64,000 nucleotides of DNA from Candidatus Omnitrophota bacterium (GTDB lineage Bacteria > Omnitrophota > Gorgyraeia > B26-G9): the NCBI GenBank assembly GCA_043826565.1, contig JBDRPX010000003.1:81293-145292 (forward strand), given 5' to 3'. The notes below the pieces were generated by a model that saw only the letters and a list, made by a program, of their open reading frames with translations, did no database searches and was not told where the DNA came from. Below are positions 4,092 through 18,355 of this stretch, piece by piece. The translations under genes were made by a program, and so were the position numbers. Within the stretch, counting starts at the first letter, position 1. Each line of letters begins with the position of its first letter.

Positions 4092-7000
4092 ATGAGAATA
4101 GTATTAGTAAATATACCGTGGAAAAAAGGAACCCGCTGGGGGGTCCGGGCCGGGTCCCGGTGGCCGCACATAAAGGACCGGACGGAAGATAATTATCTGG
4201 CTTTTCCGTTTTATTTGGCTTACGCCGCGGCTTTATTAAAGAAAAATAAATTTGAGGTGTTTATTATTGACGCAATTGCCGAACGGTTATCTTACAAAGA
4301 TTTTTTCCAAAAAGTAATTTCTTTAAAACCTGATTTACTTGTTGCCGAAACTTCGACTGTTTCTCTTAAGCATGACCTGAATTTTCTTTTGCGCTTAAAA
4401 GGCCTTGCCGAGGTTGCGATATGCGGGCCGGATGTGCACATCGCGGATCCCAAGTTTTTGCAGGAAACAAGTCAGGTTGACTATGTGCTTTTTGGCGAGT
4501 ATGAAGCTACCTTGCTGGAACTGGCGCAGACTTTAAGGGGGAACTATTGCAAAACGCCCATCTGCGGCGTTTCTTCCTCATTCGCTTGTGCGACGTCCGA
4601 CGAAAAGGACGCCTCCTCGCTCATTCGTCGAGGCCTTGCATCTGAACATTTTTCAATAGTCCCCGGAGACAGAAAATTGTTGGATAAAATTGACGGTCTG
4701 ATTTTTCGGGATAAAGGGAGGATTATTAAAAATAAGCCGCGTCCTTTAATTTCTGATCTTGATTGGCTTCCTTGGCCGATGCGCAAACAGCTTCCCATTA
4801 AACGTTATAATGATGCTCCGGGAGATATCCCGATTCCTTGTGCTTCGATGTGGGCCAGCCGGGGATGTCCGTTTAGGTGTTCTTTTTGCTTATGGCCGCA
4901 AGTAATGTATAACGGGAACAGCTATCGTACCAGAGATGTGAAGTCTGTTGTTGATGAGATGGAATATCTGATTAAGAAACTTGGCTTTAAATCAATTTAT
5001 TTTGATGATGATACGTGGAATATCGGAGAAGATCGGATTTACGCTTTTTGCGAAGAACTTAATAAAAGGGAATTGAATATCCCCTGGGCAATTATGGCCC
5101 GGGCCGAACTGATGGATGAAGCATTACTTGAAGCAATGCGTAAAGCAGGTTTATTTGCCGTTAAATACGGGATAGAGTCTTCTTCTCAGGAGATTTTGGA
5201 TAAGCTTGGCAAAGGTCTTGATCTGAAAAAAGCCGAAGAGGTAATTAAATACACAAAGTATTTAGGGATTAGAACGCATCTTACTTTTACATTCGGTTTG
5301 CCCGGAGAAACTCAACAATCAATACAAGATACAATCAATTATGCTCTTAAACTTAATCCTACATCAGTACAGTTTTCTATAGCCACTCCCTTTCCCGGAA
5401 CAAGGTTTTATGAAGAGATGGAAAAAAAAGGATACCTTTTAACCAAAGATCTGGAAAAATTTGACGGTAACCACAGCAGTGTGATCCGCACGGAGCATTT
5501 ATCAGGTAAACAGCTGCAAAAAGCTAAAAAAACAGCCTATGCCGAGTGGGATAAGCATTATCAATTGAAAAATAAAAAACTTTTTTTCAAGAATAAACCT
5601 TTAAAAGTAAAATTGATGAGTTCTTTAGTTGAACAGGGCGTGGTGCTTACGGCAATAAAAATTCTCAGATTTATAATCAGAAGAGTCTTTTTTTTTCCGT
5701 TACGGGTCAAACAGCTTTTTACCCGAAAGCTGTGGATTATTGAGGAGATTGTTGGGACAAGAGACTTAAGGCTTAAATTTGGAGAAGGCCGGGTTAAAGT
5801 TTTTTGGAAGGATAAAGAGATCAGTAAAGATGTCGGGTTGACGACTTCTTTACATTATGGGGATTGCTGGTTTGATTCAACCCAGGCGAATTGGAAGCTG
5901 GAAAAACAATCAGGGGATAAGATAAAAGTAAAATTAAAGTGGGACGAAGTCCCGGTCCGCCAGGAATGGGATATCGAGATTATTGAAGACCGGCAAATTA
6001 AGTGGGTAAGTACTCTGCAGGTGGAAAAAAGTGTGCAGTTACTTGAGTATAAGGCCGGGATAATGGTGTCGGATAGCTATACCAAGTGGAGAGATGATTT
6101 AGGAATTGGTAAATTCCCAAAGATTTCCGGGTGGGAGGAAATTGAATTATATAACTCCAATAGTGCGGTTTTAAGAGTAATCGCGGATGAAGGCAAAGGC
6201 GGAAAAACGGATCTTCCAGAACTGGAAATGCGCTCAGCTTGTGATTTAGAAAATAATACTTATCCGCAGATACAAAATACCGATTGTAAGATAAATGCCA
6301 GAATATTGCAGATGCGGAAATTGAAGATCGCCCAATTTACCCCGGGAGATTATAAGTATTTTGATTTGGAAATTGTAATAGAGAATAAGCAATTGGTTCC
6401 TCAGACCATAGATAAGTATAAGAAAAGAGTGCCGCTTCAATTTATAAAGGAACAGATATCGGCGGGCGGATTCTTCCCGGTTTTAATGAAAATATTAAAG
6501 CACTTACATCCCCGGCGATTAAGTGATTATTATTTGGATATTATCGGGGTTCTTGACGGCAGTTACGCGTATAAAGGCCCGTCTTTTGTTCAGATAGACC
6601 TTACCAATGATTGTAATAATGATTGCATCGGATGTTGGTGTAATTCGCCGCTTTTAGGTGATAAAAAAATCGACGATACGGTTAAACGCCAGACATTACC
6701 ATTTGAAACTGTAAAAAAGACTATTGATGAGCTAGCGGGAATGGGAACGAAGGAGATTTATTTTGCCGGAGGCGGAGAGCCGTTTATGCATCCAGAGATA
6801 TTGCCTATTCTCGAACATGTGAAAAAACGGAGATTGGGTTGTTATATAAATACAAATTTTACCCTGGTTAATGAGGATGTTGTAAAACGGTTAGCCGAAT
6901 TGAAAGTGGATAATCTGATTGTAAGTGTCTGGGCGGGTACTCCGGAAACTTATTGCTTGACCCATCCGAATAAATCCGAAGGCATGTTTTATCAGATTAA

Positions 7001-8423
7001 GGGCATGCTCAGGCTGCTGAGCACGCTTAAACAGGGCGTTCCGAATATTAATATTTATAATGTGATTTCCAATTTAAATTATCATGAGCTTGAGGAAATG
7101 GTTGAGTTTGCCGTAGATGCTCATGCTGATTCTTTGGAATTTACCGTAATTGATACTATCCCTAATGCTACAGACTCTCTTCTTTTAAGCGACCAACAGA
7201 GAAAAATAGTTTTAGAAAGTTGTCAAAGAATTCAGAAGAGATTGGAAGAGGATTTGAAAGGAAAAATAAAGGTTTTGCAATTTGAACAGTTTGTCCGCCG
7301 GATTGATACCCGGGATGCCCAAGAAGCAAAATACGATAAAAATATCCTGGAACAGATGCCGTGCTATATCGGATGGCTATTTGCCCGGATATTAGCTGAC
7401 GGAAATGTCAATTTTTGTCTTAAAAGCCATCGTATCCCGGTGGGGAATATTTACGCGCAGGATTTTTCTGATATATGGAACAGTCAGCGGCAGCAGGAAT
7501 TCCGAAAACGATCTTTATGCGCAGATAAGAATGACGTGTTTTTTTCTTTTATCGGAAATGATCCAAATGTAAAGGTGGGGTGCTTTAAAAGCTGTGATGA
7601 TTTAGCGCGTAATGTGAGGATGCATAAGAAGCTTCAGTCTCTTACGTTTTGGGAATTAAAATTTTTAAGCCGTGTTTTATTTTTCAAGAAGCTGCAGAAA
7701 GCTTTCCGCAATAAGAAATTAGGCCAGGTAATTCGCTCTCAGATAAAAAAACGTCAATTAACCGCGGGCAAACACTTATCCCGCGGAGATTTAAGGCTGG
7801 AGAGCCATAGCGATGGGATCAAACTATATTGGGCCGATAGACAATTAACCGAGAGTGTGGGGCTCAATAGTTCCGTATGTATATTTGGATTATGGTATGA
7901 CTCATCGAAGGCAGAATGGGAAATCAAGAAACACACCGATACTGAGATTATTATAAAAAACGTCTGGCATAAAATTCCTATCGCGCAAAACTGGGAATTG
8001 AAGGTAAAGCAAGGGAATGTGGTTAGCTGGAATATTAATTTGTCTGTTGAGTCTAAAATTGAGATAGAAGAGACTAAAACAAGTATAATGCTTTCATCGG
8101 ATTACCGTAAGTGGCAGACGCAGAAGGAACAGGGGAAGTTTCCTTTGCTTTCCTTTTGGAATGAAGCGGATATTAATGATTTATCAGTTAAGAATGTCGG
8201 GGTAGCCAGAAGTAAGGGGAAAGGGGGCTTTCGCCCGGGGATAGATCTTAATTTTTCAGATATGTCCGGGGATACGCGTCCTCAGATACAAAATGCGGAT
8301 AAAAGTATTAATGCCCGGATTATTTCCGCCCGGTGTGTTGAGAATAATGGTGGAAAAGTATTTTTGCCTGGGGAATATAAAATTTTTTCCGGGGAAATAG
8401 TGATAAGGTCTGACGATGTCTAA
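4092..8423 (+). CDS. 1443-aa multidomain fusion: B12-binding domain + rSAM, repeat domain, second rSAM with SPASM-like cluster, repeat domain
   Basis: N-terminal 'MRIVLVNIPW...GSRWP...FEVFIIDA' (B12/Rossmann-like). First CxxxCxxC 'CPFRCSFC'. Second CxxxCxxC 'NDCNNDCIGCW' with 'FAGGGEPF'. Downstream Cys cluster 'MPCYIGW...NFCLKSH'. Repeat copies at ~5765-6130 and ~7790-8160. Confidence 0.75.
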   Translation: MRIVLVNIPWKKGTRWGVRAGSRWPHIKDRTEDNYLAFPFYLAYAAALLKKNKFEVFIIDAIAERLSYKDFFQKVISLKPDLLVAETSTVSLKHDLNFLLRLKGLAEVAICGPDVHIADPKFLQETSQVDYVLFGEYEATLLELAQTLRGNYCKTPICGVSSSFACATSDEKDASSLIRRGLASEHFSIVPGDRKLLDKIDGLIFRDKGRIIKNKPRPLISDLDWLPWPMRKQLPIKRYNDAPGDIPIPCASMWASRGCPFRCSFCLWPQVMYNGNSYRTRDVKSVVDEMEYLIKKLGFKSIYFDDDTWNIGEDRIYAFCEELNKRELNIPWAIMARAELMDEALLEAMRKAGLFAVKYGIESSSQEILDKLGKGLDLKKAEEVIKYTKYLGIRTHLTFTFGLPGETQQSIQDTINYALKLNPTSVQFSIATPFPGTRFYEEMEKKGYLLTKDLEKFDGNHSSVIRTEHLSGKQLQKAKKTAYAEWDKHYQLKNKKLFFKNKPLKVKLMSSLVEQGVVLTAIKILRFIIRRVFFFPLRVKQLFTRKLWIIEEIVGTRDLRLKFGEGRVKVFWKDKEISKDVGLTTSLHYGDCWFDSTQANWKLEKQSGDKIKVKLKWDEVPVRQEWDIEIIEDRQIKWVSTLQVEKSVQLLEYKAGIMVSDSYTKWRDDLGIGKFPKISGWEEIELYNSNSAVLRVIADEGKGGKTDLPELEMRSACDLENNTYPQIQNTDCKINARILQMRKLKIAQFTPGDYKYFDLEIVIENKQLVPQTIDKYKKRVPLQFIKEQISAGGFFPVLMKILKHLHPRRLSDYYLDIIGVLDGSYAYKGPSFVQIDLTNDCNNDCIGCWCNSPLLGDKKIDDTVKRQTLPFETVKKTIDELAGMGTKEIYFAGGGEPFMHPEILPILEHVKKRRLGCYINTNFTLVNEDVVKRLAELKVDNLIVSVWAGTPETYCLTHPNKSEGMFYQIKGMLRLLSTLKQGVPNINIYNVISNLNYHELEEMVEFAVDAHADSLEFTVIDTIPNATDSLLLSDQQRKIVLESCQRIQKRLEEDLKGKIKVLQFEQFVRRIDTRDAQEAKYDKNILEQMPCYIGWLFARILADGNVNFCLKSHRIPVGNIYAQDFSDIWNSQRQQEFRKRSLCADKNDVFFSFIGNDPNVKVGCFKSCDDLARNVRMHKKLQSLTFWELKFLSRVLFFKKLQKAFRNKKLGQVIRSQIKKRQLTAGKHLSRGDLRLESHSDGIKLYWADRQLTESVGLNSSVCIFGLWYDSSKAEWEIKKHTDTEIIIKNVWHKIPIAQNWELKVKQGNVVSWNINLSVESKIEIEETKTSIMLSSDYRKWQTQKEQGKFPLLSFWNEADINDLSVKNVGVARSKGKGGFRPGIDLNFSDMSGDTRPQIQNADKSINARIISARCVENNGGKVFLPGEYKIFSGEIVIRSDDV
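4560..4660 (+). repeat. GC-rich ~100-bp in-frame insert within the B12-domain region, with internal inverted repeat (cgacgaa/ttcgtcg) and direct repeat (ctcattcg)
   Basis: Local GC is far above surroundings. Encodes 'CGVSSSFACATSDEKDASSLIRRGLASEHFS' between 'KTPI' and 'IVPGDRK...GLIFRDKGRII'. The equivalent loop in the other seven B12-rSAM paralogs here is short. Confidence 0.4.
5765..6130 (+). other. Copy 3 of the repeat domain
   Basis: 'LRLKFGEGRVKVFWKDKEISKDVGLTTSLHYGDCWFDSTQANWKLEK...YTKWRDDLGIGKFP'. Confidence 0.6.
7790..8160 (+). other. Copy 4 of the repeat domain
   Basis: 'LRLESHSDGIKLYWADRQLTESVGLNSSVCIFGLWYDSSKAEWEIKK...YRKWQTQKEQGKFP'. Confidence 0.6.
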
Positions 8424-10068
8424 AATAATAATTATTAGCAGTCCTCCCTGGGGAATTGTAATGCCGCCGTTAGGTATGGCTTATCTTGCCACTTATCTTA
8501 AATCTAAAGGGATTGTTCCGGAAATATATGATTTAAATTTGCAGTTGTATGAACAAGCGGATCAACAGCAAGAGCATTTTTGGGATTTGGATACGATCAA
8601 TAAATTTTTGCCTGTGGATATTGCTCATAATTTGTTTGCTGCTTTTGAAGATACTTTAGGGGATGTTGTAAAAAAGCTTGTTAATTATGATATTGTTGGT
8701 TTTTCCGCGAATAATCTTATTAGTACAACTTTTGCCGGTATTATGGGTACTCAAATAAAAAATATTTCGCCGAAGACTAAAATCATTTTAGGCGGTCCGG
8801 GATGTTTTCATAGTTGGGATCGGAAAGCTGTACCAAAAGATGCGGTTGATTTCTTTATTATCGGGGAAGGGGAAGAGGCCTTATATCGGCTGATTATGGC
8901 CATAGATGAAGGTGACGAACAGCGAGAAATTCCCGGGGTGATTTGTTGCGCGGCCGGAGATAGAAAAAGATTTTATCCGCCGGAGCCGGTAAAAAATCTG
9001 GATGTCATTCCGTTTCCGACATTCGAAGAATTTGATGTAAGTAAGTACAGTTATGGAAAAAAATACCGGCCGCTGCCGATGCTTACCAGCCGGGGCTGTA
9101 TTAATCAATGCGCGTATTGTATAGACTGTTATATGTCCGCACCTTTTCGGGCCCGGAGCCCGGAACAGGTAGTTTCTCAAATAAGCTATTATAAAAAACA
9201 TTACGGGATAACTCATGTTGAGTTTAATGATTTATTATGTAATGGTAATTTAATCCGGCTGGAAAAACTTTGTGATCAATTGATCGAGGCGGAACTTAAT
9301 ATAAATTGGATTAGTTATGCGGCAATAAGAAGAAAAATGAATTCTCAGTTGCTTGAGAAAATGAGAAAAGCCGGATGTACATCTTTATGTTTTGGGGTTG
9401 AAAGCGGTTCGGATAGTGTATTAGCGCGAATGAATAAGCATTATATAAGAGCCGAGGCTAGTGCCTTGCTTAAAAAAACCCATGAGGCAGGAATTACCGC
9501 ACGCCTTAATTTAATTGTCGGTTTCCCCGGGGAAACCGAAGAGAATTTTCAGCAGACACTTGATTTTATTAAGGATAATATGGCATCTATCAGTCAGGTA
9601 ACAAATGTCTCGTCTTTTGTGCTTATGCCCGGATCGGATATCGGGATTTATCCTTACCGGTTTGGGGTGAAGTTTTTAGATCCGCTTGATCCCGGAATTT
9701 GGACAGATGAATTCGGGCTTACTCAGCAGGAGCGCAATAACCGGGTGGCTCGGGCCTGCCGGTTACTGGAAGAATTAAATATTCCTAACCTGATTATCAA
9801 TTATCAAAGCAAGACTCAAGACGCAAGACTCAAGACGCAAGACTCAAGACTCAAGACGCAAGACTCAAGACCCAAGACTCAAGACGCAAGACCCAAGACG
9901 CAAGACGCAAAACTCAAGACTCAAGTTGTTGTCAGAACATTTAATCGTGATAGATTAGTAAGTAAGATAATAAAGCTTATTTTTCTGTTTGTTTTTAGCT
10001 TAATTATTGATATTTATCTATTTTTATTAAAAAAAATCAGAGGTTCGATCATATTTCCGGGAAACTGA
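8416..10068 (+). CDS. B12-binding-domain radical SAM protein with C-terminal heptad low-complexity tail and TM helix
   Basis: N-terminal 'IIISSPPWGIVMPPLGMAYLATYLKSKG' (B12 domain). 'LTSRGCINQCAYCIDC' CxxxCxxC. C-terminal 'KTQDARLKTQDSRLKTQDSRPKTQDARPKTQDAKLKTQ' then hydrophobic 'IIKLIFLFVFSLIIDIYLFLL'. Confidence 0.8.
   Translation: MSKIIIISSPPWGIVMPPLGMAYLATYLKSKGIVPEIYDLNLQLYEQADQQQEHFWDLDTINKFLPVDIAHNLFAAFEDTLGDVVKKLVNYDIVGFSANNLISTTFAGIMGTQIKNISPKTKIILGGPGCFHSWDRKAVPKDAVDFFIIGEGEEALYRLIMAIDEGDEQREIPGVICCAAGDRKRFYPPEPVKNLDVIPFPTFEEFDVSKYSYGKKYRPLPMLTSRGCINQCAYCIDCYMSAPFRARSPEQVVSQISYYKKHYGITHVEFNDLLCNGNLIRLEKLCDQLIEAELNINWISYAAIRRKMNSQLLEKMRKAGCTSLCFGVESGSDSVLARMNKHYIRAEASALLKKTHEAGITARLNLIVGFPGETEENFQQTLDFIKDNMASISQVTNVSSFVLMPGSDIGIYPYRFGVKFLDPLDPGIWTDEFGLTQQERNNRVARACRLLEELNIPNLIINYQSKTQDARLKTQDSRLKTQDSRPKTQDARPKTQDAKLKTQVVVRTFNRDRLVSKIIKLIFLFVFSLIIDIYLFLLKKIRGSIIFPGN
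9810..9925 (+). repeat. Tandem 7-bp repeat (caagacN) x ~16 inside the coding sequence
   Basis: Read directly: caagact caagacg caagact caagacg caagact caagact caagacg ... Unit length 7 is not a multiple of 3, giving a 7-aa protein periodicity. Confidence 0.9.
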
Positions 10069-11346: not shown

Positions 11347-12138
11347 ATGGAAAAAATTAAATTTGAGAATAAAAAATTTTTAAAAGTGATGTTTTTTTTA
11401 GGCAGTATTGCTTTATTTGTAATTTTTTGTTATTTCAAAGCAGAAGGGAGAAGCTCCTTTTTGTGTTCCTCAGCAATGGCGCATATGCAGGTGGATGGAT
11501 TGGATGCCAGCACTATTCTTAAAAAAGGAATAAATGATTTTTTTTCTGATGGGATTGCCTATAATCCAGATGTCGATAGACGAATAGAAGAAGATTATTT
11601 TGCTCAGAATAGGATTTATAACGGCGACTTTTCTGACGAATTAGCACACTGGAGCACCATAAATTCTAGTAATAGTTATCCAAAAAATAGAAATCTTTTT
11701 ATTGTTTCTCAGGAAGAATGTGTATCCGAGCCATATAGTATTAAAATATGTGCAAATGAACATCCCTGCTCATTGTTTTATGTTAAAAATGCCCGGGTTA
11801 ATATTATAAGTCCCCCGGGGAATTACAGAGCGGTACCGGAAGCCTGGCTAGGCGTAATTCCAGGAGAAATGATTGATTTTAGTTGTTACTATAAAGGGAT
11901 CGGGCCGACAATTTATATTAATATAACAACGCGAGCTGGATTTATGAGGAATTTAAAAAAAATTATAATTAAAGAAATTGCTAAGGATTGGCAGGAGTGC
12001 CGAATTAGTGTTCAAATCCCTAAAGACGGCAGGGCTATTTCATTTGAAATCCAAGTTGGTTCTATTTTGCCAAATTCTGTAATGTATTTAGATGATATTT
12101 TAATTTCGAGCCGGAGGCTTATTGATGATAAAAGATAA
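11347..12138 (+). CDS. Membrane-anchored protein with CBM4/9-like (carbohydrate-binding, beta-sandwich) domain; paralog of 15913..16668
   Basis: N-terminal TM 'FLGSIALFVIFCYF'. 'YNGDFSDELAHW' resembles the CBM_4_9 'NG(D/G)FE...W' start. 'SEPYSIKICA' and 'AWLGVIPGEMI' are conserved with the paralog ('SAPYSLKIES', 'NWLGVLPGAKI'). Confidence 0.45.
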   Translation: MEKIKFENKKFLKVMFFLGSIALFVIFCYFKAEGRSSFLCSSAMAHMQVDGLDASTILKKGINDFFSDGIAYNPDVDRRIEEDYFAQNRIYNGDFSDELAHWSTINSSNSYPKNRNLFIVSQEECVSEPYSIKICANEHPCSLFYVKNARVNIISPPGNYRAVPEAWLGVIPGEMIDFSCYYKGIGPTIYINITTRAGFMRNLKKIIIKEIAKDWQECRISVQIPKDGRAISFEIQVGSILPNSVMYLDDILISSRRLIDDKR

Positions 12139-13225
12139 ACGAATGTATGGGATTTGTTTGTTTTTACTAATTATTTTTCACTTGATAAATATTTCCTTGT
12201 GGTATAACAAAAAAATATGGCCTGCCGGCAAGGATTACTCTTATCACTTACAGAGAACATGTACATTTATGAAGGAAGTTGAAAGGCATAAAGACTGGAG
12301 ACAATTTGTTTTTATTGATAAAACGGATTATCCGCCATTTTATTATTGGACCGGGGCTGTTTTGGGGCTATCTTTTAGAACATATAATGTTTTGTTTTTT
12401 AATTCAGCATTCTATTTAGTTGTGCTTTTGGTTTCGGTTTATGGGATAGGAAGGGAGTTGATGAATATCGAGACAGGATGCTTTTCTGCGATAATTTGCT
12501 CTTTTTCCCCGTTTATTTATAATTCTTCTATACAATTTAATTTAGAACTTGCAACGGCGGCATTAGTCAGCCTGATCGTGTGCATGATTGTGTTAAGCCG
12601 AGGATTTAGTCGTGGTTTTTATACTTTTCTGATGGGAGTAGCCTTAGTGATGGGAGGATATACGCGGCAGATGGTTTTTATTTTTGTTGCGGGGCCTGTT
12701 TTGATGGGCATAATTAAGCTTTGTTGTAATAAAAATCTGGATATGTATTTAAAATTAAAGAGATTAGCTTGTCTGGGCATAGTGCTGGGGATATCTTTTG
12801 GCTGTTTGCTGCCGTATTATCATGTTGTTCGATGGACACATCCGATGATTCAAAAAATAAATTTGACTGGATGGGCTCAGGGGGGTAATGTATTTTCTTT
12901 TGAGCATTTGATTTATTACATCAGGGTCATTCCACAGCAAATAGGGTGGGTGTATACTATTGTTTTTGGGCTAAGCCTAGTGGTTTTTCTAAAGGCAGAT
13001 GTAAGTAAAAGACAAATTATTTTTTCATGGAGTATCCCATCGTTATTGATTTTTTCGCTTTTTTTGTTAAAATTCCCCGAATTAACAATAGCAAATATTC
13101 CAGCAATGGCTTTAATTATAGCTTATGCGGTGTGTCTGATAAAACCTTTGTTTTTAAAAAATGGAGTAGCAGTTTTAATTTTAATATTAAGTATGTGTAA
13201 TTATTTTAGGAGTTTCCCATGGTAA
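12122..13225 (+). CDS. Polytopic membrane protein, GT-C-like glycosyltransferase (short form)
   Basis: 367 aa, many hydrophobic segments. 'DYPPFYYW' loop motif is shared with 16670..18355 ('DYPPFFYF'). Overlaps and is coupled to the upstream CBM-like gene. Confidence 0.45.
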   Translation: MMIKDKRMYGICLFLLIIFHLINISLWYNKKIWPAGKDYSYHLQRTCTFMKEVERHKDWRQFVFIDKTDYPPFYYWTGAVLGLSFRTYNVLFFNSAFYLVVLLVSVYGIGRELMNIETGCFSAIICSFSPFIYNSSIQFNLELATAALVSLIVCMIVLSRGFSRGFYTFLMGVALVMGGYTRQMVFIFVAGPVLMGIIKLCCNKNLDMYLKLKRLACLGIVLGISFGCLLPYYHVVRWTHPMIQKINLTGWAQGGNVFSFEHLIYYIRVIPQQIGWVYTIVFGLSLVVFLKADVSKRQIIFSWSIPSLLIFSLFLLKFPELTIANIPAMALIIAYAVCLIKPLFLKNGVAVLILILSMCNYFRSFPW

Positions 13226-14166
13226 AAAAAATATCAATAATAGTACCTGTTTTTAATGAGAGGGATAACTTGGCGGAGTTGAATAAAAAACTAGTCAGTG
13301 TTTTATCGAGATTGGATATGGAGAATGAAATAATTTATGTGGATGATGGTAGTAATGACGGTAGTGCGGATATCTTGAATGAGATACCTGATAAGTATAA
13401 TAATGTTAGAGTTATAACTTTAGCGAAAAATTTCGGGCAGACCCAGGCGATTTCTGCAGGGGTGGACAATTCAGACGGCGATGTTATCATTACTATTGAT
13501 GCTGATCTTCAAAATGATCCGGAAGATATCCCGGCTTTATTAGCTAAACTTAAAGAGGGCTATGATATGGTCAGCGGCTGGAGAGTGAATCGTCAAGATA
13601 ATTTATTGTTTAAAAAGATACCCTCGGCTATTGCTAATCGCATAAGTTCTTTATTGACGAATGTTAATGTCCATGATTTGGGATGTACATTAAAAGTTTA
13701 TAAACGCACAGTATTAGAAGATATTGATTATTATGGTGAAATCCATAGATTTTTGCCGGTTTTTGCGGCTATGCACGGAGCGACGATTGCGGAAATTCCC
13801 GTAAAACATCATAAGAGAAAAAATGGGAAGTCAAAGTACGGGTTATCAAGAATTTATAAAGTAATTCTTGATATGTTTACGATCATGTTTATGTGGAAAT
13901 TTTTAACCAGGCCGGTATATCTTTTCGGAGGCCTGGGAATGATTTCTTTGGGGTTTGCTTCTTTTACGGCTTTGTTTGTTGTAATTAGAAAAATGTTTTT
14001 CGGCGGGGTTTGGGTAAGTCCGCTTTTATTTCTTTTTGTTGTATTTTCTACAATGGGAATTCAGTTTATTCTTATGGGGGTTCTCGGAGAACTTATTATC
14101 CGGCTCTATTATGGTGCGCGTGACCAAAAACGATATAAGATTAAAAGAGTAGAGAGTAGCAAGTAG
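13219..14166 (+). CDS. GT2 polyprenyl-phosphate sugar synthase (ArnC/GtrB/DPM1-like) with C-terminal TM helices
   Basis: 'ISIIVPVFNERDNL'. 'YVDDGSNDGS'. 'TIDADLQNDPEDIP'. 'VSGWR'. Two C-terminal hydrophobic helices. Confidence 0.8.
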   Translation: MVKKISIIVPVFNERDNLAELNKKLVSVLSRLDMENEIIYVDDGSNDGSADILNEIPDKYNNVRVITLAKNFGQTQAISAGVDNSDGDVIITIDADLQNDPEDIPALLAKLKEGYDMVSGWRVNRQDNLLFKKIPSAIANRISSLLTNVNVHDLGCTLKVYKRTVLEDIDYYGEIHRFLPVFAAMHGATIAEIPVKHHKRKNGKSKYGLSRIYKVILDMFTIMFMWKFLTRPVYLFGGLGMISLGFASFTALFVVIRKMFFGGVWVSPLLFLFVVFSTMGIQFILMGVLGELIIRLYYGARDQKRYKIKRVESSK

Positions 14167-14193
14167 AGAGAAGAAAAAATAAAAGATGTTTTA

Positions 14194-14227
14194 ACTTGGG
14201 ACTTGAGACTTGTGGCTTGAGACTGGA
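14194..14227 (+). repeat. Intergenic 7-bp tandem repeat (acttgNg x ~4.5)
   Basis: 'acttggg acttgag acttgtg gcttgag actgg' between the stop at 14166 and the start at 14233. Confidence 0.7.
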
Positions 14228-14232
14228 ATTAA

Positions 14233-15909
14233 ATGAATATATTGGGAATTTGTGATAGTCAGGATGCCGGAGCTGTGTTTATCTGTGACGGCGGTAAAGA
14301 TATTACTGCGGTTAATGAGGAACGTTTGTCGCGGATAAAATTATGCGGAGGATTTCCGGAAAAATCAATCAAGGAGATTTTGCGGATTAAAAAAATTGAT
14401 CCGCAGAAGATTGATCAGGTGGTTTTAGCTTCTAAGATGACGCCATCATTTTTATTAAGAAGTTTTCGTAATGTGCACGCTCGGTTGCGGGGAAATAATA
14501 AGCAATTCAGTTTTTTACTTTCCCTTTACATTCTCTACCAGATGATTGCCCGCAAAACTATAATTTTAGCTAAAATTGAGGAATATTTGTCACGGATTTA
14601 TTTAAAAGCGCGCTTAAAAAAACTGGGAATAAAAAGTAAAGTCAGTGTAATCGATCACCATACCGCGCATGCCTATGCAGCATATAGTACATCAGGATAT
14701 GAACAGGCACTGATTATTACTATCGATGGATTGGGAGATGGCCTTTCTTTTACTGTTAGTATCGGCAAACAAGGCCGGGTTACCAGGATTTTTGAGCAGA
14801 ACGCATTAAATGACATAACCTTGTACTATTCCAGATTAACGGACTTTCTGGGGTTTAAACCTATTCAGGATGAAGGAAAAGTAATGGGATTGGCCGGATA
14901 TTCGAGTAATTATTTCTATCTTCTTCAAGCTCAAAAACTCCTTAAAGTAAAGTCCGGACGATTTCGTTCGAAAAACATATTTTCTCAAGATAAAAAAATA
15001 TATAAGCAGTTAAAAGGTAAAAGCCCTCAGGATATCGCGGCTTCATTTCAAGTTCATGTTGAGCAAGTGCTGAGTGAAATTGTTGATTATTGGGTGGATA
15101 AAACAAAAATAAGCGATGTTGCCTTAGGCGGCGGATTTTTTGCTAATATTAAAGTCAACCAAAAGATCGCGGAATTAAAAAATGTGAACAGTGTTTACGT
15201 CTATCCTCATATGGGAGATGGAGGAATAGCTTTAGGAGCAATATTCGCGGTTATGCAAGTGAAGCCGTTTCGTTTAAAAAATGTTTTCTGGGGACCGTCA
15301 TATTCTCAGCAGGACATAGAGGATGTTCTTAAAAAAAATGGTGTTCGGTATGAAAGGGTAAACAATATAGAAAATCGCATAGCTGAGCTTATCAGCCAAG
15401 GAAAGATCGTGGCGCGTTTTTGCGGAGCAATGGAATATGGACCTCGCGCATTAGGAAATCGTTCTGTTTTAGCTCCGGCTACAGATAAGGATGTGGTGAT
15501 GAAGCTTAATCAAAAACTTGGGCGGGATATGTTTATGCCTTTTGCTCCGGTTGTTTTAGCAGATAAGATTCACGAGTGTTGTCTGAATGTAGAAAAAGCT
15601 ATTTATTCTGCCAATTTTATGAATGTGAGTTTTTCTTGCACGGAATACTTTAAAAAATTATGTCCGGCCGTGGTTCACACTGACGGAACAACTCGTCCCC
15701 AATGTGTTTTTGAGGAAAATAATTTTAAGTTGTTTAAAATTTTAAATAAATATCAGAAGATAACCAAGATTCCGGCAATGATTAATACCAGCTTTAATAC
15801 TCATGAGGAGCCAATTGTGTGTTCTCCGGAAGATGCTTTGAGATCATTTAAGATGGCGAAGCTTGAATATTTAGCGATGGAGAACTTTTTAATAAAAGGA
15901 GACTATTAA
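14233..15909 (+). CDS. Carbamoyltransferase (NodU/CmcH family)
   Basis: N-terminal 'MNILGICDSQDAGAVFICDGGKDITAVNEERLSRIK' matches the family's 'ILG...HD..A.L..DG.I.AA.EER..R.K' start. 558 aa. 'HH.AHA' motif 'DHHTAHAYAAY'. Confidence 0.7.
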   Translation: MNILGICDSQDAGAVFICDGGKDITAVNEERLSRIKLCGGFPEKSIKEILRIKKIDPQKIDQVVLASKMTPSFLLRSFRNVHARLRGNNKQFSFLLSLYILYQMIARKTIILAKIEEYLSRIYLKARLKKLGIKSKVSVIDHHTAHAYAAYSTSGYEQALIITIDGLGDGLSFTVSIGKQGRVTRIFEQNALNDITLYYSRLTDFLGFKPIQDEGKVMGLAGYSSNYFYLLQAQKLLKVKSGRFRSKNIFSQDKKIYKQLKGKSPQDIAASFQVHVEQVLSEIVDYWVDKTKISDVALGGGFFANIKVNQKIAELKNVNSVYVYPHMGDGGIALGAIFAVMQVKPFRLKNVFWGPSYSQQDIEDVLKKNGVRYERVNNIENRIAELISQGKIVARFCGAMEYGPRALGNRSVLAPATDKDVVMKLNQKLGRDMFMPFAPVVLADKIHECCLNVEKAIYSANFMNVSFSCTEYFKKLCPAVVHTDGTTRPQCVFEENNFKLFKILNKYQKITKIPAMINTSFNTHEEPIVCSPEDALRSFKMAKLEYLAMENFLIKGDY

Positions 15910-15912
15910 TAT

Positions 15913-16668
15913 ATGAATAAAAAATTACTTCAATGGTTTTTTACGGAAGAGAAGATAAAGGAACAGACAATTAATGCAAATGATGAATGCGTAGAATTAC
16001 ATCCCGTCCAGGTTATTTCTTTAATTATTGTTACTATAGTTTTTGTTTTTGGGGTTCTTTTATCGGAAAACAGATGGCCCATGAAAGTGGAAACATTGCC
16101 CTCGACTCCGCAGGAAAAGATTGAAACGAAAATAGAGAAAAATTATTTTGTGAATAGGGAGGACATTATAAACGGTGATTTTTCAAAAAAAATGGCATAT
16201 TGGGCAACCGCAGACGGCGGAACTATTTTTAGTGATTCAAAAAGCAGGATGGTTACTTGTGATAAGGATTATGTGTCTGCTCCGTATAGTTTAAAAATTG
16301 AATCCATTGTTCCGGCTAATCGGGTCTATTACATTAAAAAACCTCAGGAGAAAAAAATACAAAACCCTTATGGGTTTGAGGAATGTTCTAATTGGCTGGG
16401 GGTTTTACCTGGGGCAAAAATTAATGCTAGTCTTTGGTATAAGGGGAGCGTGATAACAGTTTATCTGCAATATATTAATAAGAATGGTAAATGGAAAACC
16501 CTGGATAAAATTGTCGGTCCGGTAACTGATGAATGGAAAAAACTTGAACTGGAAAAAATTGCGCCTGCAGATTGCCGGGCTATCTGCATAGAAATAACGT
16601 TAAATCAGGCCCAAGGAATGCCGTTACCGGCTGTCCTAATTGATGATGTTAGTTTAAAAGTTAAATAA
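15913..16668 (+). CDS. Membrane-anchored CBM4/9-like domain protein; paralog of 11347..12138
   Basis: TM 'VISLIIVTIVFVFGVLL'. 'INGDFSKKMAYW'. Confidence 0.45.
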   Translation: MNKKLLQWFFTEEKIKEQTINANDECVELHPVQVISLIIVTIVFVFGVLLSENRWPMKVETLPSTPQEKIETKIEKNYFVNREDIINGDFSKKMAYWATADGGTIFSDSKSRMVTCDKDYVSAPYSLKIESIVPANRVYYIKKPQEKKIQNPYGFEECSNWLGVLPGAKINASLWYKGSVITVYLQYINKNGKWKTLDKIVGPVTDEWKKLELEKIAPADCRAICIEITLNQAQGMPLPAVLIDDVSLKVK

Positions 16669-16669
16669 T

Positions 16670-18355
16670 ATGAGAAAAAAAGTTATTTTTATAATTCTTC
16701 TGATTATTATATTATTTCATGTGGGGAATAATATAAGGTATTTATCTTTATGTCCGTTAGCTGAGGGGAAAGACAGTTATGCTCATGTGTATATATTTAT
16801 GGGGTTTTTACACTTGATTTCAACAGGTCAAGATGAGTTATGCTCCATTACTAGGACGAACTGGATAAAAAGTATAAGCGATATTTCAGCGGATTATCCA
16901 CCATTTTTTTATTTTGTTGCTTTGTTAATGCAGCTAATGGGGAGCTTTATAATAAATAATGGTGCTTTGTTTACTTCGACACTGGCATTTGCTGTTTTAT
17001 TATTTAGTGTTTATAAATTAGGTTCTATTAGGGATGAACAAACGGGTGCTTTAGCCGCACTAATATGTTCTTTATACCCGATTATATTTGTGAGCTCTCG
17101 TCATTTTAATATTGAAATGACACTTGCGGCAATGGTTAGTCTTGGGGTATGGATTTTATATAAAACAGATTTTTTTGAAAACCGAATCTTTTCAATTTGT
17201 CTGGGGGTGATTGTTGGGCTAGGCATGCTTACAAAACAAACATTTTTTATGTATCTTTTAGGGCCGTTTTCTTTTATGTGTTTATTAAGTTTAAAAAAGG
17301 ATACAGAGAAGTGTGTTTCTTTGCGCAAGGAGAATATCCTGAGAGCACTTACTGTAGCTGCGGCTTTGGCAGCCCTTTTTTATCTTAATAAAAATATGTG
17401 GGTTAGTATGATTAACCGGTCACAGTTTTCCGGAGGAGCACTAGGAGATAATTTATTATCTTGGGGACACATTTTTTACTATATTCGCTCTCTAGAGACT
17501 CTTTTAGAACCAGTTTTCTTAGTTGTTTTTATACTATCTTTATTTATGATAAGAAAATCTAAAGAGTTTTTTTTACAGATATTGATGCTGTGGTTAATTG
17601 TTCCATTTTGCTTATTTATGTTTTTCAAACTAAAGTATGCGGAATATGCAATTGCTTATTTGCCCGCAATGGCTCTTATCTCAGCGCAGGGGATATTAAG
17701 TATTAATAATAAACTTTCGAGAAATTTAATAATAGTATTTATTGTAGTGGCGGGTTTATCTAATTTTTTTATGATTAGTAACGGCCGGAAAACGTTTTTC
17801 TATGCAAGATGCTACGCGGAGAATCCAATAGTCAACATAATAGATCATGAAAAATTTCAGGATACCAAAGATGCTGCTACTTTTGAAAAAGTAGCGAAAC
17901 AAATAGGTAATTCTAATGTGCTTGTTGGAGTTTTTTACGATGATGCCGGAGGTAAATTCCCCGCGTATTTAATTAGGAAAGTTTTCGCTCATAGTGCAAA
18001 AAAATCAAAGATTATTGACTTTTTTAATTGTGTGCCGGGATTCTTTGACTCTCTGGAATTGTTTGATATTATGATTTTTGTGACATGCTCTGAAAAGGAC
18101 TGGATAGATAAGGAGTCTTTTAGATATTTTATTGAAAAAGTTAATAAAGTGAATTTTAGTAAACTTTACTTATCTGAAGATAAAAATGTTTTCCAGCAGC
18201 AAATTGTAGGTATGAATAGGGTGCAGATTCCGGTAAAAGATTTAGAAAGATTAATTACTATGAAAGATGAGAATTTCACGAAACTGTATTCTATGGAATT
18301 TGATGATGGGATTGCTCAAAAAGTGTACATATATAAGAGGGTAGAGAGAAGATGA
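16670..18355 (+). CDS. Polytopic membrane protein, GT-C-like glycosyltransferase
   Basis: 561 aa, more than 10 hydrophobic segments, 'DYPPFFYF' loop, large C-terminal soluble domain. Immediately follows the CBM-like gene (2-nt gap). Confidence 0.5.
   Translation: MRKKVIFIILLIIILFHVGNNIRYLSLCPLAEGKDSYAHVYIFMGFLHLISTGQDELCSITRTNWIKSISDISADYPPFFYFVALLMQLMGSFIINNGALFTSTLAFAVLLFSVYKLGSIRDEQTGALAALICSLYPIIFVSSRHFNIEMTLAAMVSLGVWILYKTDFFENRIFSICLGVIVGLGMLTKQTFFMYLLGPFSFMCLLSLKKDTEKCVSLRKENILRALTVAAALAALFYLNKNMWVSMINRSQFSGGALGDNLLSWGHIFYYIRSLETLLEPVFLVVFILSLFMIRKSKEFFLQILMLWLIVPFCLFMFFKLKYAEYAIAYLPAMALISAQGILSINNKLSRNLIIVFIVVAGLSNFFMISNGRKTFFYARCYAENPIVNIIDHEKFQDTKDAATFEKVAKQIGNSNVLVGVFYDDAGGKFPAYLIRKVFAHSAKKSKIIDFFNCVPGFFDSLELFDIMIFVTCSEKDWIDKESFRYFIEKVNKVNFSKLYLSEDKNVFQQQIVGMNRVQIPVKDLERLITMKDENFTKLYSMEFDDGIAQKVYIYKRVERR

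Follow-up and report, generated by a model that had tools for sequence, protein, structure and literature searches.

In a stretch of 64,000 nucleotides (nt) from the metagenome-assembled genome of a Candidatus Omnitrophota bacterium (GenBank assembly GCA_043826565.1, contig JBDRPX010000003.1, positions 81,293 to 145,292 of the forward strand; the window hereafter), I find two paralogous two-gene modules in which the gene for a small membrane-anchored protein directly precedes the gene for a membrane glycosyltransferase (GT) of the GT-C fold. The small proteins are predicted to carry a beta-sandwich like that of carbohydrate-binding modules (CBMs). With slightly better than even confidence, I read the pairs as part of a periplasmic system for glycan modification, similar to Arn/Gtr, to which a separate protein contributes the CBM-like module. 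The case for the pairs rests on structure prediction and comparative genomics.

Results

The initial annotation of this region described two small proteins, each with a transmembrane (TM) anchor and an 'NGDF..W' signature and each followed by a GT-C-like protein with a 'DYPPF(Y/F)Y' loop, with a GT2 polyprenyl-phosphate-sugar synthase and a carbamoyltransferase between the two pairs. All six open reading frames (ORFs) are present on the + strand with these motifs, and Pfam matches and the ArnC/PgfS alignment confirm that a GT2 and a carbamoyltransferase gene lie between the pairs. The genes, named below by their start positions, are as follows (aa, amino acids):

11347..12138, + strand: small protein A, 263 aa; ORF, paralogue of 15913; matches the family profile, no Pfam or NCBIfam match
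12122..13225, + strand: short GT-C A, 367 aa if started from TTG 12122; PMT_2 25.1 bits; 32% identical to 16670
13219..14166, + strand: GT2 of the ArnC/GtrB/PgfS type; Glycos_transf_2 120.8 bits; full-length alignment to ArnC and PgfS
14233..15909, + strand: carbamoyltransferase of the NodU/CmcH type; Carbam_trans_N and Carbam_trans_C; NodU 121 bits
15913..16668, + strand: small protein B, 251 aa; ORF, paralogue of 11347; matches the family profile; predicted model
16670..18355, + strand: long GT-C B, 561 aa; PMT_2 38.8 bits; paralogue of 12122

In the first pair the start of the GT-C gene overlaps the end of the small gene (stop codon at 12136-12138) by 14 nt if counted from ATG and by 17 nt if counted from TTG; the start is probably ATG 12125, directly after the listed TTG 12122. 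The overlap had been annotated correctly, but the gap in the second pair, given as 2 nt, is a spacer of 1 nt, as the stop codon ends at 16668 and the ATG lies at 16670. According to profile searches of all window ORFs, 11347 and 15913 are the only two small-protein genes in the window. The product of 15913 is 100% identical to NCBI ABII88_00380, and that of 11347 matches ABII88_00360.

The two small proteins are paralogous (29% identity over 179 aa, E 2e-26) and have in common a hydrophobic helix near the N-terminus and the motif 'NGDFS..(A)(H/Y)W'. Small protein A consists of a K-rich N-tail, one TM helix (approximately residues 11-29), a long linker and a CBM4/22-like beta-sandwich with the motifs 'NGDFS', 'WLGV', 'YYKG' and 'LDD'. 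Small protein B has an N-tail with 'WFFxEE', a TM helix, a linker, a further helix and again a CBM4/22-like beta-sandwich. In the B-type proteins the N-tail 'W-F-F-E-E-E' and the TM residues Gln33 and Thr41 are conserved and the linker is poorly conserved, a pattern of sequence conservation which suggests that the TM helix is more than a passive anchor. In the same N-tail (window 15913-16010 and orthologues), an acidic run comes after 'W-F-F-E-E-E', and 'IE(I/L)' stands just before the TM helix. The possibility that the small proteins are lipoproteins was rejected, as no lipobox accompanies the conserved Cys with which the TM helix of the A type ends.

The AlphaFold2 model of the 15913 product, made from a 10-sequence alignment, has a mean pLDDT (predicted local distance difference test) of 81.5, with a disordered N-tail, the TM helix at 31-52, a short helix at 66-73 and a confident beta-sandwich at 84-250 (mostly pLDDT >90). 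The jelly-roll anticipated by the initial annotation is borne out by this model, which can be superimposed on solved CBM4 and CBM22 modules. Its nearest solved folds are CBM4-2, CBM22, CBM16 and CBM61 (Foldseek, CBM22 with E 2e-8, CBM16 with a template-modelling score of 0.76). Searches of the PDB with single sequences of either the small or the membrane protein returned only noise (antibody chains, protein G), and profiles were needed; the family profile matched the CBM4 of laminarinase 16A (1gui), weakly, with E 6e-4. Proteins with genuine CBM_4_9 domains occur among the remote matches of an exhaustive profile search. A CBM4/9-like jelly-roll fold of the small protein is supported by the predicted model, although the protein falls outside the curated family, and the sandwich is probably a distant relative of CBM4/9 modules.

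The two membrane proteins are paralogous as well (32% identity over 307 aa, E 3e-38), with the shared loop reading 'TDYPPFYYW' in GT-C A (12122) and 'ADYPPFFYF' in GT-C B (16670). GT-C A (motifs 'GKDYSYH' and 'TDYPPFYY') is a TM-only protein of nine hydrophobic segments whose chain ends right after the last of these, with no C-terminal soluble domain. GT-C B combines an ArnT/PMT-like membrane domain (about residues 1-371, with 'EGKDSYAH' and 'ADYPPFFY') with a C-terminal alpha/beta domain at 385-561. Relative to the PMT_2 cutoff of 26.1 bits, 16670 scores above (38.8) and 12122 just below (25.1). The GT-C topology proposed for these proteins also holds on structural comparison, which returns a GT-C fold on a polytopic membrane protein with a protein O-mannosyltransferase as the top match. 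In a profile alignment, 'DYPPF' is matched to 'EKPPF' of ArnT, with the acidic residue and the Pro-Pro kept; in ArnT this is the E84/K85 'EKPP' motif, of which the Lys contacts the lipid phosphate (PMC7801869). An acidic residue also opens the first extracytoplasmic loop of such enzymes, D55 in ArnT and D77 in Pmt1 (PMC7801869). Both window GT-Cs and all B-type orthologues have an Asp after TM1, in 'GKD(S/Y)'; no alignment pairs this Asp with ArnT D55, the match of the hidden Markov model beginning at ArnT residue 85.

The pairing was mapped by placing the window proteins on every related locus fetched, with gaps taken from ORF coordinates, and it proved conserved across many genomes and contexts. 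The B pair occurs in nine distinct loci from Omnitrophota or the Planctomycetota-Verrucomicrobiota-Chlamydiota (PVC) group (the window, L001 = L015, L002/L003, L005 = L013, L010, L011, L012, L014 and L016), with the GT-C immediately downstream at gaps of -17 to +12 nt. The gene order at these loci is GT4, GT2, carbamoyltransferase, small B, a GT-C of about 550 aa, radical SAM/SPASM, methyltransferase and two more GT-Cs. The A pair, a small protein of 230-263 aa with a TM-only GT-C of 349-381 aa, was found in six loci (the window, L002/L003, L017, L018, L019 and L020) with gaps of -26 to +37 nt, and it is absent from L001 and L005; a metagenome scan with a narrow A-type alignment gave four loci. 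The A pairs of L017, L019 and L020 lie in unrelated contexts, with housekeeping genes around the first and prepilin-like genes beside the last, which indicates that the pair travels as a two-gene unit.

In L020 (5923-12568), the A pair is followed after about 700 nt by five genes whose products begin like prepilins ('GFTLVE', 'AFTLLE', 'VTLIEV'), which hints at pilins or pseudopilins as acceptors of the GT-C in that genome.

Two further loci bear on the linkage. The contigs of L022 and L027, both from sample SRR25013523 and representing a more distant lineage, overlap end to end and give the order small gene (P0028), B12 radical SAM, carbamoyltransferase, a GT-C of the same subfamily and a second small gene (P0035). 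This second gene begins within the last part of the GT-C gene, and a small gene thus flanks the GT-C region on both sides. As the same gene families are present here in a rearranged order, the linkage has withstood rearrangement. In L002 (5562-7367), and identically in L003, the A-type small gene contains a single in-frame TAG ('WLGVNP*DEV') in an otherwise well conserved frame, and the A-type GT-C gene is frameshifted near 6936-6958; the B pair of this locus is intact. Both A partners have decayed together, in a state identical in a JGI and an ENA assembly, and the TAG and frameshift could represent recent pseudogenes, read-through or assembly error. The window encodes six PMT_2-like GT-Cs; a small partner accompanies the two of this subfamily and none of the other four.

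Strict co-evolution of the partners was considered and rejected: their identities correlate with r 0.85 over all pairs, mostly as a result of the A/B split and shared phylogeny, and within the B type r is 0.49, with clear discordance.

A word-indexed search for relatives of the small proteins yielded 10 clusters, all from Omnitrophota or PVC bacteria, and the exhaustive profile search yielded 125 representatives of the domain, of three kinds. The first, with about 45 cluster representatives of 220-270 aa, follows the plan of tail, one TM helix and sandwich. The second comprises about 13 proteins of about 420 aa (among them P0048, P0058, P0063, P0064, P0066 and P0067), in which a signal-less pentapeptide-repeat domain and one TM helix precede the sandwich. 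The third consists of large secreted proteins with signal peptides, beta-helix and Big domains, one of them with a C-terminus of the type IX secretion system.

A fused version, which had been suggested as something to survey for in other genomes, did not turn up: none of the 125 domain relatives matches the window GT-Cs, and none of 12 GT-C relatives matches the domain profile. In every locus the small protein and the GT-C are encoded by two genes that differ in frame. A direct fusion in this gene order would be topologically awkward, as the small protein would end outside the cell and the GT-Cs start inside. That one gene has been split by a sequencing frameshift was rejected, since the genes are separate in all loci and the junctions differ, and since a fused chain would have the N-terminus of its GT-C part on the wrong membrane side. 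One relative, P0076 (967 aa), combines the domain (residues 132-284) with a Big_6 domain and a C-terminal region of seven TM segments dissimilar to the window GT-Cs, and may represent a further membrane enzyme to which this domain has been fused.

Of the genes between the pairs, the GT2 (13219-14166) aligns over its full length to ArnC (NF007986, 236 bits, under the equivalog cutoff) and to PgfS (155 bits). It has C-terminal TM segments at 238, 259 and 278 (spanning 238-296), as the GT2 of a three-component system would, and from sequence it is predicted to be a polyprenyl-phosphate sugar synthase.

The surroundings form a single very large glycan-type cluster on the + strand (38-63882). The window contains at least 17 radical SAM genes (B12-binding, SPASM and HMPTM zinc-ribbon types) and, besides the six PMT_2-type GT-Cs, encodes a YfhO-like protein, GT4 and GT2 transferases, a DegT aminotransferase, asparagine synthase, WbqC and GDSL lipases. 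All large ORFs except three are on the + strand, and the GC skew is positive across the whole window. The gene order of the first 20 kb is preserved in other Omnitrophota and PVC genomes. Two radical SAM proteins upstream of the pairs have unusual architectures. The 1443-aa product of 4092-8423 contains two fused radical SAM modules, the first B12-binding (HpnJ-like, 259 bits) and the second of the radical SAM/SPASM kind; after each comes a beta-rich stretch of about 200 aa, and the two stretches resemble each other ('LRLKFGEGRVKVFWKDKEISKDVGLTTS...' and 'LRLESHSDGIKLYWADRQLTESVGLNSS...'). The B12/radical SAM product of 8416-10068 carries C-terminal tandem 7-residue repeats KTQD(A/S)R(L/P) and then a hydrophobic tail.

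Discussion

The initial annotation interpreted the pairs as units of glycan elongation. This is not supported over decoration with single sugars, as the ArnC-like GT2 together with the ArnT-like sequence match points to a modification system of the Arn/Gtr type. In such a system the GT2, judging from its family membership, would attach a sugar to undecaprenyl phosphate on the cytoplasmic side, and the carbamoyltransferase, whose linkage to the pair is conserved, may modify this sugar or its precursor. A flippase would then move the lipid-linked sugar outward, and on the periplasmic side each GT-C, to judge from its fold, would transfer the sugar to a surface glycan, possibly a glycoprotein. 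The small protein, its TM helix beside the GT-C, would bind the acceptor glycan and present or select it. The predicted fold and the gene coupling underlie this last step, and binding and complex formation are proposed by analogy with EmbC, AftD and the GT136 enzyme ORF12, the fused CBMs of which bind the acceptor (PMC3044687, PMC11127046); the precedent of fused CBMs invoked by the initial annotation is real. The small protein would act in trans as these modules act in cis, and docking on the GT-C through the TM helix and a beta-sheet lobe may be envisaged by analogy with Gpi14-Pbn1. As the chain of the short GT-C includes no soluble domain, this enzyme would depend on the partner for any periplasmic domain.

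A stronger version of this proposal, which I regard as tentative and rather doubtful, is that the pairs are the first bacterial heteromeric GT-Cs, in which a minimal, membrane-only ArnT/PMT-like transferase is obligatorily paired with a single-pass subunit that provides the carbohydrate-binding periplasmic domain in trans, with the conserved 'WFFEEE' cytoplasmic tail as the link to carbamoylation and the like. If this is true, swapping the small subunit could change acceptor specificity.

Several observations, set out in this and the next two paragraphs, weigh against the periplasmic modification system proposed here. The position of ArnT Lys85 is occupied by Tyr in the window GT-Cs ('DYPPF'), and the Asp of 'GKD' is replaced by Ala in the A-type GT-Cs of L018-L020. 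No small multi-TM protein standing on its own, as a GtrA-like or ArnE/F-like flippase would, emerged from a hydropathy scan of all + strand ORFs in the window with 60 aa or more; a flippase could be encoded elsewhere in the genome. The small proteins have no Pfam match at E <= 0.1, including CBM_4_9 (PF02018), and no NCBIfam match. That no Pfam CBM model is matched also fits a different role of the small protein, that of a subunit comparable to PIG-X/Pbn1 that gives structure or stability and serves the folding, stability or active-site shaping of the GT-C, with the CBM-like fold merely a scaffold and no lectin function. The gene coupling and the conserved TM residues would fit such a subunit equally well, as would the short GT-Cs without a soluble domain, and the solved Gpi14-Pbn1 complex has one TM helix of the partner packed against the GT-C, with which a luminal lobe of two sheets is also in contact (PMC12653191). 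I consider this explanation unlikely.

The linkage itself has its exceptions. In L007 (2865-4482), from an Omnitrophota metagenome-assembled genome, small B is directly followed by radical SAM/SPASM, with no GT-C between them, and the distant member P0056 (L026) has no GT-C in about 6 kb of downstream sequence. Between L010 and L012 the partners are discordant, with 74% identity of the small proteins and 43% of the GT-Cs, a discordance which the exchange of subunits mentioned above might explain. Alternatively, the small protein could function independently of the GT-C, either as a co-expressed anchor that binds surface glycan or as an acceptor glycoprotein that is itself glycosylated on its Pro/Ser/Thr linker. 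The retention of the small gene in L007, the distant family members that are not always beside a GT-C and the discordant identities all speak for such independence, and for the acceptor in particular one may cite the P, S and T residues after the TM helix (e.g. 'LPSTPQ') and the protein O-mannosyltransferase as top structural match of the GT-C. However, the linker is the least conserved part of the small protein, the pairing is kept in 15 of the 16 close loci that are informative and recurs in contexts without relation to one another, and both A genes decay together in L002/L003, so I judge an independent role improbable.

The orientation of the small protein is the third issue, since the numbers of Lys and Arg on either side of the TM helix are ambiguous: the whole N-tail of the B-type proteins contains 4-8 of these residues, but an acidic run precedes the TM helix and a basic flank with 1-4 Lys/Arg follows it. 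In addition, the B-type small genes are coupled as tightly to the upstream carbamoyltransferase gene, which directly precedes them in every B-type locus by overlapping or abutting, as they are to the GT-C. Both findings would suit a cytoplasmic beta-sandwich (N-out, C-in) acting with the carbamoyltransferase or a radical SAM enzyme on a sugar intermediate, in which case the adjacency of the GT-C reflects co-expression of a pathway only, and the P0028-type member likewise has a carbamoyltransferase and a radical SAM gene in its company. Against this, no carbamoyltransferase is found near the A-type pairs, the Lys/Arg content of the whole N-tail argues for the opposite orientation, and CBM4/22-type modules are extracellular. 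Furthermore, the secreted architectures of domain relatives, and those with pentapeptide repeats and a TM helix, place the domain outside the cytoplasm. I hold it likely that the beta-sandwich of the small proteins lies outside the cell, and a cytoplasmic sandwich acting with the carbamoyltransferase or a radical SAM enzyme highly improbable.

Many surface glycans of bacteria are made or decorated by GT-Cs, and little is understood of the way in which these enzymes select an acceptor; where a CBM is known to bind the acceptor, it belongs to the same chain as the enzyme. If the proposed modification system is real, a separate membrane-anchored module would show that acceptor recognition can be modular, and the pairs would offer a simple two-protein study system and, through the swapping of lectin subunits, a possible handle for glycoengineering. 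The analysis also gives a first structural and functional label to a family of about 45 cluster representatives without Pfam or NCBIfam match, seated in a large and conserved radical-SAM-rich glycan cluster of uncultivated Omnitrophota.

Comparison with known systems

The glycoside-hydrolase CBMs of types CBM4, CBM22 and CBM16 (4bj0, 1h6x, 2zew, 1gui) have 13-20% identity to the small-protein domain, which differs from them in sitting on a membrane anchor and in being linked to a biosynthetic enzyme instead of a hydrolase. The ArnC-ArnT pathway of lipid A aminoarabinose (ArnT, 5ezm/5f15) supplies an enzymatic parallel for the GT2 and the GT-Cs, but the scores obtained here are far below the equivalog cutoffs. 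The pathway differs further in the residue at ArnT Lys85, and equivalents of ArnA, ArnD and ArnE/F were not seen in the window. To my knowledge, ArnT has no separate CBM partner.

As regards the division of labour between two chains, Gpi14/PIG-M with Pbn1/PIG-X (PMC12653191; 9wno) is an example of a GT-C that works with a beta-rich partner spanning the membrane once. This system is eukaryotic, however, Pbn1 is anchored by a C-terminal TM helix where the small protein has an N-terminal one, and Pbn1 is not described as a CBM.

In the mycobacterial arabinofuranosyltransferases EmbA/B/C and AftD (PMC3044687; 10.1101/2019.12.22.885152), a GT-C membrane domain works with acceptor-binding, lectin-like beta-sandwiches, as proposed here for the pairs. 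The GT136 protein ORF12 of Citrobacter youngae O1, from the 'three-component' periplasmic systems, likewise brings together a polyprenyl-phosphate sugar synthase, a GT-C that decorates a surface glycan and a beta-rich CBM, and this CBM binds the unmodified acceptor polysaccharide (PMC11127046). The differences are that the CBM-like domain of the window is a separate single-pass protein encoded by the upstream gene, that its GT-C is of the PMT_2/ArnT type and not GT136, and that the window revealed no flippase. In EmbC, AftD and ORF12 alike the CBM is covalently joined to the GT-C, whereas here the two are distinct chains. In the literature searched, no bacterial GT-C turned up whose CBM or auxiliary subunit is described as the product of a gene of its own, which does not prove that there is none. 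What is already known on either side of the present pairs are GT-Cs with fused CBMs and eukaryotic GT-Cs with single-pass partners.

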